DNA of 64,000 nt from an uncultured Actinomycetota bacterium (GTDB lineage: Bacteria; Actinomycetota; Actinomycetes; JAFAQI01), in NCBI GenBank assembly GCA_963770565.1, contig CAVYQE010000011.1, forward strand, positions 896,001 to 960,000, written 5' to 3'. Shown here one piece after another: positions 32,154 to 38,553 of this stretch (positions are counted from its first letter, which is position 1; each line of letters opens with the position of its first letter). The position numbers were made by a program, and so were the translations under genes. Below the pieces are notes generated by a model that was given only the letters and a program-made list of their open reading frames with translations, did no database searches and was not told the DNA's origin.

Positions 32154-33179
32154 GTGCGAATCGGTGTGCTGACCGGCGGTGGCGACTGTCCAGGGCTCAA
32201 TGCGGTGATCCGGGCCGCGGTGCGCAAGGGCACGGAGACCTACGGCCACTCGTTCCTGGGCTTCCGCGACGGCTGGAAGGGCCCGCTCGAGGGCCTGACA
32301 ATGCCGCTCGACGTCTCGGCGACCCGCGGCATCCTGCCTCGCGGCGGCACCATCCTCGGCTCGTCTCGCACCAACCCGCTGAAGGTCGACGGCGGCATCG
32401 AGGCGATCCGCGCCAACCTTCGGTCGCTTGAGGTCGACGCGCTGATCGCGATCGGCGGTGAGGACACCCTCGGCGTCGCGACCGTCCTGGCCGCCGAAGG
32501 GCTGCGGGTGGTCGGCGTACCGAAGACCATCGACAACGACCTCAGCGCCACCGACTACACCTTCGGCTTCGACACCGCGGTGCAGATCGCGGTCGACGCG
32601 ATCGACCGCTTGCACACGACCGCGGAGTCGCACCACCGGGTGCTGATCGTCGAGGTGATGGGCCGGCACGCGGGCTGGATCGCGTTGCACTCGGGCCTGG
32701 CCGGCGGGGCGAACGTCATTCTGATCCCCGAGCGGCCGTTCGACATCGACCAGGTCTGTGCCTTCATCGAGCACCGGTTCGCCTCGCACTACTCGCCGAT
32801 CGTCGTCGTGGCCGAAGGCGCGGTGCCCGCGGCCGGCACGATGGCGCTGCAGGACCAGGGCGTCGACGCCTTCGGTCATGTGCGGCTCGGGGGGATCGGG
32901 TCGATGCTCGCTGCGGAGATCGAGGCCCGCACCGGTAAGGAAGCCCGGGCCACGGTGCTCGGGCACGTGCAACGAGGGGGTACGCCGACCGCGTACGACC
33001 GGGTGCTCGCGACCAGGTTCGGCCTGCATGCAATCGACGCGGTTCACGAGGGCGACAGCGGCGTGATGGTCGCGCTCCGCGGCACCGAGATCGTCCGGGT
33101 GCCGCTCGCCGACGCGACCAGTGAGCTGAAGACGGTTTCACCCGAGCGCTATGCAGAGGTCGAGGTCTTCTTCGGGTGA
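32154..33179 (+). CDS. pfkA: 6-phosphofructokinase
   Basis: GGDCPGLN, GGEDT, PKTIDND, EVMGR. Confidence 0.97.
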   Translation: MRIGVLTGGGDCPGLNAVIRAAVRKGTETYGHSFLGFRDGWKGPLEGLTMPLDVSATRGILPRGGTILGSSRTNPLKVDGGIEAIRANLRSLEVDALIAIGGEDTLGVATVLAAEGLRVVGVPKTIDNDLSATDYTFGFDTAVQIAVDAIDRLHTTAESHHRVLIVEVMGRHAGWIALHSGLAGGANVILIPERPFDIDQVCAFIEHRFASHYSPIVVVAEGAVPAAGTMALQDQGVDAFGHVRLGGIGSMLAAEIEARTGKEARATVLGHVQRGGTPTAYDRVLATRFGLHAIDAVHEGDSGVMVALRGTEIVRVPLADATSELKTVSPERYAEVEVFFG

Positions 33180-34483
33180 CGATTGCTGCGCAGCAGCCGG
33201 ACTGGCCCGATCCGGCCGAGGTTGCTGCCGTCGGGGCGGAGCTCGCCGTGCTGCCCGGCCTGGTCGATCCGGCCGACTGTGACGTCCTGCGGGAGCGGCT
33301 GGCCGCGGCCGGCCGCGGCCAGGCGTTCGTGTTGCAGGGCGGTGACTGCGCCGAAACCTTCGCCGGTGTAGTGGACGCGCAGGTGCGCGACAAGCTGCGG
33401 ACGATCCTGCAGATGGCGGTCGTGCTGACGTACGGCGCCGGGTTGCCGATCGTCAAGATCGGCCGGATGGGTGGGCAGTTCGCCAAGCCCAGGAGCACCG
33501 ACATCGAGGCGTTGACCGGGTTGCCGTCGTACCGCGGGGATGCGGTCAACGACCTGGCCGCAACGCCCGAGGCGAGGATCCCGGATCCGCGCCGGATGTT
33601 GCAGGCGTACCACGCGAGCGCCACGACCCTCGCGCTGCTGGCGCAGCACACCCGCGGCGGGCTGGCCGACCTGCACCAGGTGCACGACTGGAACAAGGAC
33701 TTCGTCCGCGCCTCGCCGGCCGGCGAGCGCTACGAGCAACTCGCTCAGGACATCGACCGGGCGCTGGCGTTCATGCGGGCCTGCGGGGTCGACCTCGACC
33801 ATGAGGCGACGATGCACGGGGTCGAGTTCTTCGCCAGCCACGAGGCGCTGCTGCTCGACTACGAACGTCCCTTGACCCGGCACGACGACACCCGCGACGC
33901 CGACTACGACCGCTCCGGCCACATGGTCTGGATCGGCGAGCGCACCCGGGCGATCGACGGCGCGCATGTCGAGTTCGCGAGCCGGATCGCCAACCCGATC
34001 GGGGTGAAGCTGGGCCCGGGTGTGTCAGTGGACGAGGCGATCGCACTTGCCGGGCGGCTCGATCCGGACCAGCTGCCGGGCCGGTTGAGCTTCATCACCC
34101 GGATGGGAGCCGACCGGGTTCGCGAGGTCCTGCCGGACCTGGTCGCCGGGGTCGCGGCCGCCGGTGTGTCCGTCACCTGGATCTGCGATCCCATGCACGG
34201 CAACACAATCTCCTCGCCGAGCGGCTACAAGACCCGGCGCTTCGACGACGTGATCGACGAGGTGCGCGGCTTCTTCGAGGTGCACCGCGGCCTTGGTACG
34301 ACGCCGGGCGGGATCCACGTCGAGCTGACCGGCGAGGACGTCACCGAGTGCCTCGGCGGCGCACTCGACATCGACCACACCGATCTCGCCGGGCGCTACG
34401 AGACCGCGTGCGACCCGCGGCTGAACACCGGCCAGTCGCTGGAGCTGGCCTTCCTGGTCGCGGAGATGCTGCACGGCGGCTGA
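33176..34483 (+). CDS. Class II DAHP synthase
   Basis: QGGDCAE, GQFAKPRS, WIGERTR, CDPMHGNT, CDPRLN. Confidence 0.96.
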   Translation: MTIAAQQPDWPDPAEVAAVGAELAVLPGLVDPADCDVLRERLAAAGRGQAFVLQGGDCAETFAGVVDAQVRDKLRTILQMAVVLTYGAGLPIVKIGRMGGQFAKPRSTDIEALTGLPSYRGDAVNDLAATPEARIPDPRRMLQAYHASATTLALLAQHTRGGLADLHQVHDWNKDFVRASPAGERYEQLAQDIDRALAFMRACGVDLDHEATMHGVEFFASHEALLLDYERPLTRHDDTRDADYDRSGHMVWIGERTRAIDGAHVEFASRIANPIGVKLGPGVSVDEAIALAGRLDPDQLPGRLSFITRMGADRVREVLPDLVAGVAAAGVSVTWICDPMHGNTISSPSGYKTRRFDDVIDEVRGFFEVHRGLGTTPGGIHVELTGEDVTECLGGALDIDHTDLAGRYETACDPRLNTGQSLELAFLVAEMLHGG

Positions 34484-35389: not shown

Positions 35390-35438
35390 GCGGAATAGGT
35401 TAGGGCGACTCGGTACCCAATCCTTGGAGGCAGCGCCC

Positions 35439-36479
35439 GTGCCGGCAATCGTCGACCTTCGCAGCGACACCGTGACGCGCCCGACCGAGGCGATGCGGCG
35501 GGCCATGGCCGAGGCCGAGGTCGGCGACGACGTCTACTCGGAGGACCCGTCCGTCAACGCTCTCGAGGCCGAGGTGGCCGAGCTGTTCGGGCACGGCGCG
35601 GCGATGTTCGTGCCGACCGGCACGATGGGCAACCAGGTCGCGCTTCGGATGCTCTGCGGGCATGGCGATGAGCTGCTCTGCGACGCGGACGCGCACATCG
35701 TCAGCTACGAGGCGGGCGGTCTTGCGGCCCAGGGCGGGATCCAGACCCGCACGATGGTGGTGCCGAACGGCCGCCTGACTCCCGAGGTGGTCGAACCGCA
35801 GATCCGGACGGTCGGCTTCCACGCGGTGCCCACCAAGGCGCTGGCGGTCGAGCAGACCCACAACCGGGGTGGGGGAGCGGTCTACTCGTTCGCCCTCCTG
35901 CACGAGCTGCGGGCCTTGTCCGCCGCGCACGGGCTCGCACTGCACTGCGACGGCGCCCGGATCTGGAACGCGCACGTCGCGTCCGGCGTGCCCCTGACGA
36001 CGTACGGCGACCTGTTCGACACCCTGTCGGTCTGCCTGAGCAAGGGTCTCGGCGCTCCGGTCGGCTCGATGGTCGTGATGAAGGACCCGGATCGGCTGGA
36101 GGCGGCGCGCGACCTGCGGCATCGGCTCGGCGGCGCGATGCGGCAGGCCGGCATTCTTGCCGCGGCCGGCCGGTACGCGATCGCCCATCACATCGAGCGG
36201 CTCGCCGACGACCACGAACGCGCGAAGCGGCTCGCGGCCGGCATTGCCGATGCGGCACCCGGCGTTGCCGACCCGGACGAGGTCGAGACCAACATCGTGA
36301 TGCTTGATGTGTCCGGCGTACCGATCGATGCGGTGACCCTCGCGGCGGTCTGCGAGGAGGAGGGCGTGCTCGTGTCGTGCATGGCGTCGCAGTGGGTGCG
36401 GCTCGTCACGCATCTCGATGTCGACGACGCCGGCATCGAGCGCGCGCTCGACGTGATCCGCCCGGCCCTCGCCGGTTAG
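35439..36479 (+). CDS. ltaE: Low-specificity L-threonine aldolase
   Basis: DLRSDTVT, GDDVY, HCDGARIWN, CLSKGLGAP. Confidence 0.95.
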   Translation: MPAIVDLRSDTVTRPTEAMRRAMAEAEVGDDVYSEDPSVNALEAEVAELFGHGAAMFVPTGTMGNQVALRMLCGHGDELLCDADAHIVSYEAGGLAAQGGIQTRTMVVPNGRLTPEVVEPQIRTVGFHAVPTKALAVEQTHNRGGGAVYSFALLHELRALSAAHGLALHCDGARIWNAHVASGVPLTTYGDLFDTLSVCLSKGLGAPVGSMVVMKDPDRLEAARDLRHRLGGAMRQAGILAAAGRYAIAHHIERLADDHERAKRLAAGIADAAPGVADPDEVETNIVMLDVSGVPIDAVTLAAVCEEEGVLVSCMASQWVRLVTHLDVDDAGIERALDVIRPALAG

Positions 36480-36482
36480 CGG

Positions 36483-37508
36483 CTACGGCACCGTCACCAG
36501 GCGCTTCCCGACCAACGGCGGCAAGTCGCGGGCCGCGGCGGCGAGAGCCTGCAGGTCGACGTCGACGAGCGCCTGAGGTCCGTCACATAGCGCGGTGCCG
36601 GGCTCCGGGTGCAGGTCGACCATGACCGCGTCGGCACCGGCCGCAATCGCGGCGCGGGCGAGCGGTACGACGAGCTCGCGCCGGCCGCCGGCATGTGACG
36701 GGTCGACGATCACCGGCAGGTGTGACAGCGAATGGACCAGCGGCACGGCGCTGATGTCCAGGGTGTTGCGGTAGGCGGTCTCGAAGGTGCGGATCCCGCG
36801 TTCGCACAGCACGATGTCGAGGTTGCCGCGCTGCGCGATGTATTCCGCCGCCATCAGCCACTCCTCGATGGTGGCGTTCATGCCGCGCTTGAGCATGACC
36901 GGCTTGCCGACGCTGCCGGCGGCCTGCAGCAGCGCGAAGTTCTGCATGTTGCGGGTGCCGATCTGAAGCATGTCGGCGTACCCGCTGACCAGGTCGACGT
37001 CCTGCGCGTCGACGACCTCGGTGACGATCGGCAGCCCGGTCTCCGCCTTGGCTTCCGCGAGGATCCTCAGACCGGCTTCGCCGAGACCCTGGAAGGCGTA
37101 CGGCGACGTGCGCGGCTTGAACGCACCGCCGCGCAACAGGGCGGCACCGGCGGACTTCGCCATCCGGGCAGCTGCGACAGTCTGCTCCGGCGTCTCGACC
37201 GCGCACGGCCCGGCAATCAGCGTGAAGGTCGCAGGCCCGATCGGCACCCCGTCGACCGACACGGTCGATGTCTCGGGATGGTTCTCCCGGCTGACCAGCT
37301 TGTAGGCGGCCGAGATCCGGACGACGTTGCTGACCCCGGGCAGAGCGTCGAGGTTCAGCGTCTCGAACTGCTCGACGTCGCCGACCAGGCCCACGATCGT
37401 GCGGTGCACGCCGCGGCTGACGAACGCCGAGCCGCCCGCGCCCTGCACCGTGCGGACCACGGCGTCCAGCTGCTCGGCTGTTGCCTCCGATGTCATGACC
37501 ACCACCAT
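36483..37508 (-). CDS. aroF: Class I-beta DAHP synthase with N-terminal regulatory domain
   Basis: IAGPCAVE, GGAFKPRTSPY.FQG, QIGTRNMQN, CERGIRTFE, DPSH. Confidence 0.96.
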   Translation of the reverse strand: MVVVMTSEATAEQLDAVVRTVQGAGGSAFVSRGVHRTIVGLVGDVEQFETLNLDALPGVSNVVRISAAYKLVSRENHPETSTVSVDGVPIGPATFTLIAGPCAVETPEQTVAAARMAKSAGAALLRGGAFKPRTSPYAFQGLGEAGLRILAEAKAETGLPIVTEVVDAQDVDLVSGYADMLQIGTRNMQNFALLQAAGSVGKPVMLKRGMNATIEEWLMAAEYIAQRGNLDIVLCERGIRTFETAYRNTLDISAVPLVHSLSHLPVIVDPSHAGGRRELVVPLARAAIAAGADAVMVDLHPEPGTALCDGPQALVDVDLQALAAAARDLPPLVGKRLVTVP

Positions 37509-37540
37509 CGCTGCGTGTCTCCTCGAAAAGGACCGGCACG

Positions 37541-37572
37541 AAAAAAGCCCCGGGCGAGTGCGCCCGGGGCTC
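37541..37572 (-). terminator. Intrinsic terminator of the aroF attenuator
   Basis: Minus strand GAGCCCCGGGCG-CACT-CGCCCGGGGCT-TTTTT, 33 nt upstream of the aroF start. Confidence 0.92.
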
Positions 37573-37592
37573 GTCGTTGCGGAGTCGCGCTG

Positions 37593-37655
37593 CTACTCCA
37601 CCCGACCGAGCGATAGCCCGGGCCTGGCGTAATAGCAAAAGAACCAGCGCGTCAC
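37593..37655 (-). CDS. aroF leader peptide MTRWFFCYYARPGLSLGRVE
   Basis: GTG ACG CGC TGG TTC TTT TGC TAT TAC...TAG; TAGCAT -10 lies 6 nt upstream; followed by the terminator. Confidence 0.88.
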   Translation of the reverse strand: MTRWFFCYYARPGLSLGRVE

Positions 37656-37664
37656 ACGATCATG

Positions 37665-38553
37665 CTACTCGAACCGTTCGATCGCCGCATCCTTGGCCTG
37701 CTTCGGGGAGAGCTCGACCATGTACATGGCGAGGAGGACGAGTGCCGCGCCCACGATGATCCGCGGCCCGAGGTGGTCCCCGCCGAGGGTCACGCCGAAG
37801 ATCCCGGCGAAGACCGGCTCCATCGTCAGCACCACCGCGGTCCGGGTCGGCGCGAGATGGGTCTGAGCCCAAGTCTGGATCAGGTACGCCAGGGTCGTCG
37901 CTGCGAGTGAGGTCAGCAGGATCGCGCCCCAGACGGCTGCATCCGGAGGTGGCGCCAGCGTGCTCGGGCGCGGCGATCACGATCGACAGCACCGCAACCG
38001 TGGTCAGTTGCACGACGGCAAGACCCGCCGACTCGTACGACGATGACCACTCGCCGAGACCGACGATGTGCAGGCCGAAGGCAAGCGCGCAGACCAGGGT
38101 CAGCGCCTCGCCGCCGCCGATCGAGAAGCCGTGCAACGAGATGAAGCCGAGCCCGATGGTCGCAAGGACGACCGCCGCCAGCGTCATCCGGTCGAGCCGG
38201 CGGCGCAGCAACACCGCAGCACACAGCGGGGTGAAGACGACGAAGAGCCCGGTGATGAAACCCGAGATCGATGCCGGGGTGTGCTGGAGCCCGACGGTCT
38301 GTGCGATGTATCCGCCGCCCAGGGCCAGGCCAAGCGCGATGCCGGCTCGCCAACCCTTTGCGTCAAGGCTCAGCACTGACCGTGGCCGGACCAGAGCCAT
38401 CGCGATCGCCGCGATGGCGAACCGCCAGGCCAGGAAGTCCATCACCGGCATCCGGGTCACCGCATGTTTCACGATGACGAACGTCGAGCCCCAGACTGCC
38501 GTGACCGCGACCAGCCCGACGGTGGCAAGACGTTGCTCCCGCGCGGTCGCCAC
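37665..38553 (-). CDS. EamA/DMT family transporter; one apparent +1 frameshift near 37966
   Basis: VWGSTF...FITGLFVVFTP; C-terminal half (AYLIQTWAQ...TMEPVFAGIFG) continues in another frame to TAG at 37665. Confidence 0.88.

Follow-up and report, generated by a model that had tools for sequence, protein, structure and literature searches.

DAHP synthase is the first enzyme of aromatic amino-acid synthesis, and attenuation as a mechanism is itself textbook knowledge, the trpL and pheL attenuators of E. coli following the four-segment model. The DAHP synthase genes of E. coli are given as repressed by TyrR and TrpR in the accessible part of a review (PMC11802643). Among actinobacteria, the closest described system is aroR of C. 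glutamicum, a leaderless 78-nt leader with an F-Y-F motif that stands before aroF (Mentz 2013, PMC4046766, accessible portion); the available text of the review, citing Neshat 2014, describes it as responsive to Phe and not to Tyr (PMC11802643), and aroR has been deleted in C. glutamicum for precursor supply to an aromatic product (PMC7356990, available portion). In the partial texts of PMC1262725, PMC8079986 and PMC13236596, a survey from 2005 reports that it found conserved regulatory RNA structures for neither phenylalanine nor tyrosine operons, a list of eight leader peptides of S. lividans includes no aro leader, and two-state attenuator logic has been tested for an actinobacterial ilvB leader (PMC13236596). 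Within the literature searched, beyond whose reach most subscription papers lay, aroR is the sole aro leader found in print, no leader of W+F+Y content and none before a type I-beta DAHP synthase or a chorismate mutase was found, and the accessible parts of PMC1173090, PMC13402693, PMC13714241 and bioRxiv 10.1101/834739 hold nothing on the element described here. The initial annotation of this element, which supposed that an attenuator for three aromatic amino acids might be undescribed, overstated the novelty of an aromatic attenuator, since aroR before aroF was already published in the accessible texts named above (PMC4046766, PMC11802643).

The window (the whole stretch of DNA that was analysed, 64,000 nt) encodes on its minus strand a type I-beta DAHP synthase of 341 aa (aroF, 36483..37508), the regulated gene, which was assigned by profile matches to PRK08673 (463.8 bits, cut-off 335) and TIGR01361 (379.2, cut-off 267.75). 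Residues 1-318 of its product match the solved 338-aa DAHP synthase 1rzm, and the N-terminal part of the product is presumably a regulatory domain. Upstream on the same strand, a -10 hexamer of the form TANNNT was read from the sequence (TAGCAT, 37662..37667), the TAG of which doubles as the stop codon of an EamA-type gene. From the position of this hexamer, a leaderless transcript is predicted to begin with the G of the GTG at 37655, after a spacer of 6 nt; no two-box sigma-70 promoter was found by a scan of the leader region, where the -10 box alone is evident. The leader ORF (37593..37655, minus strand, conserved at orthologous loci) comprises 20 codons, MTRWFFCYYARPGLSLGRVE, opens with GTG rather than ATG, and closes with TAG at 37595-37593. 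Its control codons 4-9 (37629..37646, minus strand) are spelled TGG TTC TTT TGC TAT TAC (Trp Phe Phe Cys Tyr Tyr); the Cys is not conserved, Ser taking its place in the closest relatives. A second possible start, an ATG at 37662, was rejected, as it opens a frame of 3 codons that is not kept past the nearest relative.

Behind the ORF lies an intrinsic terminator (37537..37572, minus strand, the consensus hairpin of alignment A1) with a 12-bp stem at 37572-37545, a 4-nt loop and a U-rich tail, which has 5-6 U in the window copy and its family; its energy is -26.5 kcal/mol. The hairpin scan alone is not significant, since one hairpin was found against a shuffle mean of 0.5; the 150-nt leader folds at a z of -3.42. 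A Shine-Dalgarno-like GAGGAG (37519..37524, minus strand) was read 10 nt before the aroF ATG, about 20 nt beyond the terminator stem and outside the switch helices. The initial annotation had described an aromatic-rich minus-strand ORF of 20 codons, a TAGCAT box 6 nt ahead of it that overlaps the EamA stop, a terminator after it and a DAHP synthase gene downstream, and all of these stand, the gene now being placed in type I-beta. Rfam returned 12 matches at E values up to 10, all far below the gathering scores, and no family was assigned; a search of its own genome with the leader profile and the covariance model turned up no further copy, and three metatranscriptome contig sets yielded short partial matches only, which speak neither for nor against the element.

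The EamA-type transporter gene upstream (38586-37665, minus strand) has one extra base near 37970 relative to its closest relative, L002, and its frame is shifted, which may reflect an assembly error or a pseudogene. A threonine aldolase-like gene (PLP-dependent, low-specificity; 35424-36479, plus strand) converges on the aroF stop. A second DAHP synthase gene, of class II (TIGR01358), is located 2 kb away (33176-34483, plus strand); it has no room for a leader because it overlaps the stop of the phosphofructokinase-like gene upstream of it. The genome to which the window belongs, 94.9% complete, has no match to the type I-alpha DAHP synthase profile TIGR00034, and none to chorismate mutase with PF01817 as the query. 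Elsewhere in this genome, ilvB (L342) has a leaderless leader of 10 codons with a terminator, and trpE (L340) directly follows another gene, having no leader of its own.

Conservation was assessed in orthologous upstream regions from three sources: 61 relatives (30 loci returned and 18 fetched), a 401-genome sample of the class (10 new loci and 40 hand-picked across families among the 150 matches listed), and 80 named records, the closest titled Frankiales or Frankiaceae and others Streptosporangiaceae, Actinomadura, Nocardiopsis and Nocardioidaceae. Removal of duplicates and of one locus lacking an N-terminal hit left 166 loci, and exclusion of 5 with too little flank left 161 scorable. A leader was called as a TANNNT-N5-8-start uORF, so that the -10 motif is itself part of the detection rule. 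By this rule a leader uORF is present in 121 of the 161 loci, a sample that leans to top hits and in which related loci are not independent; the remaining 40 comprise 12 with leaderless aroF and 28 with neither arrangement. The figure of 121 may be an undercount, because no fewer than 3 of the 28 retain the hairpin. A genome flagged as unpublished supplied one of the leaders (L049), and three such genomes entered the covariance-model tally mentioned below; the conclusions are unaffected.

Trp, Phe and Tyr codons occur together in 97 of the 121 leaders, and the others have F+Y (17), W+Y (3), W+F (2) or F only (2). At least three aromatic codons within eight are found in 112 of the 121, against 4 of 70 background uORFs from the genome of the window (TANNNT-N6/7-RTG, 12-33 codons); the window leader is among these 4 and is the only one of the 70 with at least four aromatics in eight codons, the further 3 having three. 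The spacer from TANNNT to the start codon is 7 nt in 79 leaders, 6 nt in 34 and 8 nt in 8, and T1, A2 and T6 of the hexamer are invariant in alignment A1. Codon choice differs sharply from that of the adjacent aroF genes: Phe is encoded by TTT 126 times and TTC 82 times in the leaders as against 7 and 569 times in the genes, and Tyr by TAT 93 times and TAC 66 times as against 8 and 435. Outside the class, 20 loci fetched from among 64 genomes of the phylum with a match were read by eye, and a W+F+Y ORF with a hairpin of the same type is present in 15, a different F/Y leader in 2, and no leader in 3. To judge by this comparison, the leader is not a chance ORF. The alignment of aroF upstream regions, which had been proposed as a check, thus bears out the conservation of a W/F/Y-rich uORF; with aromatic codons, leaderless start and terminator kept in 121 of 161 loci and in 15 of 20 from other classes, the call of a ribosome-mediated attenuator is also supported. 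The comparison shows the putative -10 motif, the uORF, its W/F/Y codons, the predicted alternative pairings and the terminator all to be conserved.

Several relatives depart from this arrangement. In several genera of the family to which the window's genome belongs (L022-L029 and L048), leader and terminator are missing together, and aroF starts about 10-50 nt past the EamA stop, apparently leaderless or nearly so. Two other lineages (L363, L364) have, by eye, a different 29-codon F/Y leader, opening M-H-F-Y, before an I-beta DAHP synthase.

The initial annotation had also paired a leader segment with the 5' arm of the terminator. This pairing is real, yet it accounts for just the 7-bp outer helix, worth -13.1 kcal/mol by itself, in a longer, bulged antiterminator predicted across leader nt 33-94 (-39.7 kcal/mol as MFE, -35.2 as hand-drawn). 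Constrained folding places its 5' strand at leader nt 33-60 (37596..37623, minus strand), and folding places its 3' strand at about leader nt 70-94 (37562..37586, minus strand), where it takes in nearly all of the terminator 5' arm; the leader stop codon sits in the apical loop. Nascent RNA was folded up to the terminator 5' arm, with a ribosome modelled as covering the RNA to 9 nt past the A-site codon. In the window leader, the arm was sequestered at 0.92-0.95 with the ribosome at codons 4-6, at 0.83 at Tyr8, at 0.58 at Tyr9, and at less than 0.3 at codon 12 or the stop, so that folding of the alternatives, the other check proposed, gave in the model the antiterminator expected with a ribosome on the W/F codons and its loss at the stop, a loss that is partly a product of masking the 5' strand. 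Among the 119 leaders with a hairpin (2 of the 121 had none), the arm was sequestered at P of at least 0.7 in 96 with the ribosome at the first aromatic codon, in 12 at the last, which is usually Tyr, and in 2 at the stop. With a footprint of +12 nt, sequestration was retained for Trp in 76 of 94 leaders, for Phe in 89 of 109 and for Tyr in 37 of 109, and the median distance from codon to helix is 18 nt for Trp, 15 for Phe and 9 for Tyr. Because the Tyr codons lie nearest the helix and fail most with the longer footprint, sensing of Tyr is the weakest part of the model, and Tyr is predicted to be the codon most likely to fail as a sensor.

Shuffled leaders often sequester the GC-rich arm too (325 of 714, against 92 of 119 real leaders), so this folding control is positive but modest; shuffled leaders also fold about 7.6 kcal/mol less well than real ones. 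In the full-length RNA, formation of the terminator reaches at least 0.97 wherever the ribosome stands. With the terminator thus favoured at equilibrium, the switch has to be a kinetic one, and since nascent RNA carrying no ribosome also favours the antiterminator, timing decides the outcome. The core antiterminator helix is nearly invariant and hence shows no covariation by pair counting (137 of 500 shuffles were as high). A pair flanking this helix does covary, being G-C in 63 and A-U in 13 of 112 anchored leaders (Watson-Crick 0.71, against a permutation maximum of 0.63). The two halves of the antiterminator 5' strand can also pair together as a protector hairpin, the helix of which has 86.8% of cells paired, with 0 of 500 shuffles as high in a control that ignores relatedness. 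As the pairing segments shift reading frame between lineages, conservation lies in the RNA.

These features point to a leaderless mRNA that carries a classical ribosome-mediated transcription attenuator, a reading to which we give a probability of about 0.88 on the basis of sequence and folding models. A uORF with clustered cognate codons and an intrinsic terminator before the first gene can both be read from the DNA, and in silico an exclusive antiterminator is free at the control codons, marginally so at the Tyr positions, and blocked at the stop. Transcription would start at the GTG, and the ribosome would load at the 5' end of the RNA. If charged tRNA-Trp or tRNA-Phe (or, with less certainty, tRNA-Tyr) runs short, the ribosome would stall at codons 4-9, leaving leader nt 33-60 free to capture the emerging 5' arm of the terminator; with the antiterminator formed, RNA polymerase would continue into the gene for DAHP synthase. 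With the tRNAs charged, the ribosome would reach the stop codon and cover the 5' strand of the antiterminator, whereupon the terminator would form and transcription would end at about 37540.

Other explanations of the same features were considered. The peptide itself, rather than tRNA charging, might matter, as a small protein or as an arrest peptide responding to free aromatic amino acid within the exit tunnel, TnaC being one such arrest peptide. Pro follows the aromatic run in 72 of the 112 anchored leaders and R-A-G recurs in 12, as might be expected of a selected peptide; however, the nucleotides that encode this Pro specify Ser in 17 leaders and fall in different frames in 23, and the second segment is translated as R-A-G in one frame but as L-G-R or L-D-R in another. 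Residues conserved apart from RNA pairing, as in peptides of the TnaC/SecM type, were not found, and since the conserved bases after the aromatic run change both frame and residue, an arrest peptide is disfavoured. The length of the 121 leaders varies from 13 to 32 codons, the synonymous bias to TTT and TAT would be unneeded, and a stall caused by excess amino acid would turn biosynthesis on, which is the wrong sign. We consider an active peptide very improbable.

Equally improbable is an attenuator that acts on translation of aroF, through occlusion of the Shine-Dalgarno sequence or coupling, or that acts via Rho, with a hairpin that terminates poorly. Many of the homologous terminators have weak U tails, and hairpins lacking U tracts are described for some actinobacterial leaders in the accessible part of PMC8079986, but the tail of 5-6 U in the window copy and its family, and the position of the Shine-Dalgarno sequence beyond the switch helices, speak against it. 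The least credible possibility, which we would very nearly dismiss, is that the hairpin serves the EamA-type gene, as its constitutive terminator or as an insulator, with aroF transcribed from its own promoter and the uORF incidental. The hairpin does lie about 90 nt past the EamA stop, and in eight relatives of the family (L022-L029, of which one has a short flank) EamA directly adjoins aroF and the leader is absent; however, in these relatives the hairpin has been lost along with the leader even though EamA remains, and TANNNT is absent, as the sequence reads, from the terminator to the aroF ATG. Leader and hairpin accompany aroF, and since EamA is upstream in merely 24 of the 121 leader loci, the leader is independent of it.

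The control codons of such leaders vary with the gene downstream, which favours the attenuator reading. A covariance model built from 57 leaders matched 79 of 151 genomes of the class, and 35 hits were fetched, all away from the I-beta genes already collected. They include leaders before small chorismate mutases and Thr-rich leaders before thrS, as well as 2 further I-beta genes and about 10 weak matches on unrelated hairpins. In several families, small chorismate mutase genes have ahead of them a leaderless leader that contains F and Y but no W and is followed by a similar terminator. When chorismate mutase loci were chosen by family TIGR01808 (n=26, L314-L339), 21 had an F+Y leader, 2 an F+Y leader with an extra W, 1 a Tyr-only leader, 1 a spurious call and 1 none. 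Type I-alpha DAHP synthase loci have aromatic leaders in 37 of 40 cases, with W in 36 of the 37, once after the cluster; spurious uORF calls (L180 and L181 before I-alpha genes, L316 before a chorismate mutase) were excluded from the counts. Trp is found in 102 of the 121 leaders of I-beta DAHP synthases but, among the 23 F/Y leaders before chorismate mutases, in just 2, and three genomes (G135, G157, G177) have W in the DAHP synthase leader and no W in the chorismate mutase leader. Because chorismate mutase serves only Phe and Tyr, this distribution of W by gene provides the strongest evidence of the Trp codon being read.

Short threonyl-tRNA synthetase genes (L302, L303, L304, L307; the family scan of these genes covered L302, L304 and L307) are preceded by leaderless leaders that are rich in Thr and share the terminator type, and these leaders resemble the published thrL of S. 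lividans. Since the covariance model matches thrS leaders as well, the likeness partly reflects a general actinobacterial attenuator scaffold and does not establish common descent of these leaders. The odds that a single leader reads all three aromatic tRNAs are about even. A broader proposal, which in our judgement could as easily fail as hold, is that of a phylum-wide family in which the leaderless ribosome acts as an OR gate on three aromatic tRNAs at the entry to the shikimate pathway, the scaffold is re-coded for each gene (W+F+Y with DAHP synthase, F+Y with chorismate mutase and Thr with thrS), and rare TTT and TAT codons together with the distance from codon to helix set the weights of the amino acids.

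The element fills the gap left by the 2005 survey, the accessible text of which reports no conserved RNA control of Phe or Tyr in actinobacteria, and it is present in the cultured genera Nonomuraea, Actinomadura, Streptosporangium, Microbispora and Nocardiopsis. Given its place at the entrance to chorismate synthesis, it may restrict the flow of precursors into aromatic natural products. Some natural variants have Trp and others lack it, and their distances from the antiterminator vary, so that they could show how one leader weighs three tRNAs.

In comparison with known systems, the leaderless trpL, ilvL, leuL and thrL, as described in the available parts of PMC1262725, PMC8079986 and PMC13236596, have the same uORF with cognate codons and the same mutually exclusive antiterminator and terminator, but they sense amino acids other than the set in the window leader. 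In E. coli trpL and pheL, stalling at cognate codons likewise selects the antiterminator over the terminator, but each responds to a single amino acid and governs a terminal branch (PMC11802643, accessible part). The layout shared with aroR is closer still: a leaderless short ORF with Phe and Tyr codons, an antiterminator, a terminator and a DAHP synthase gene, in an actinobacterium. The locus L219, which contains the primer stretch printed in the available portion of PMC7356990 and a 25-codon F-Y-F leader, fits the published aroR (78 nt, leaderless); its leader uses TTT and TAT codons and has no Trp. L219 has a GGCTCCGGG-type strand just after the aromatic codons, similar to that of the window; its antiterminator partner adjoins the terminator arm, whereas in the window the partner lies within the arm. 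In a 201-genome sample of the genus of the aroR match, the best 30 of 59 I-alpha loci all have leaders (F+Y in 18, W+F+Y in 12), and leaders of the aroR type (L182-L218, L219-L248) occur in four families, that of G112 among them, where most contain Trp and read Y-W-R-F. The profile of I-beta leaders scored 14 of 37 I-alpha leaders above 0 bits (best 7.4), as against 2 of 37 reversed and none of 37 shuffled; this cross-scoring took in the 37 leaders, the set of 30 that includes L219 standing outside it. The window leader reads W-F-F-C-Y-Y in place of the F-Y-F motif, with Trp added, the enzyme downstream is of type I-beta rather than the I-alpha of that genus (TIGR00034), and the terminator sequences differ; because of these differences and the weak cross-score, the element was not filed as aroR itself. 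What is new here relative to aroR, as read from the DNA, is the added Trp, the different class of DAHP synthase and the different terminator. The element thus appears to work like aroR in design, without necessarily descending from it.
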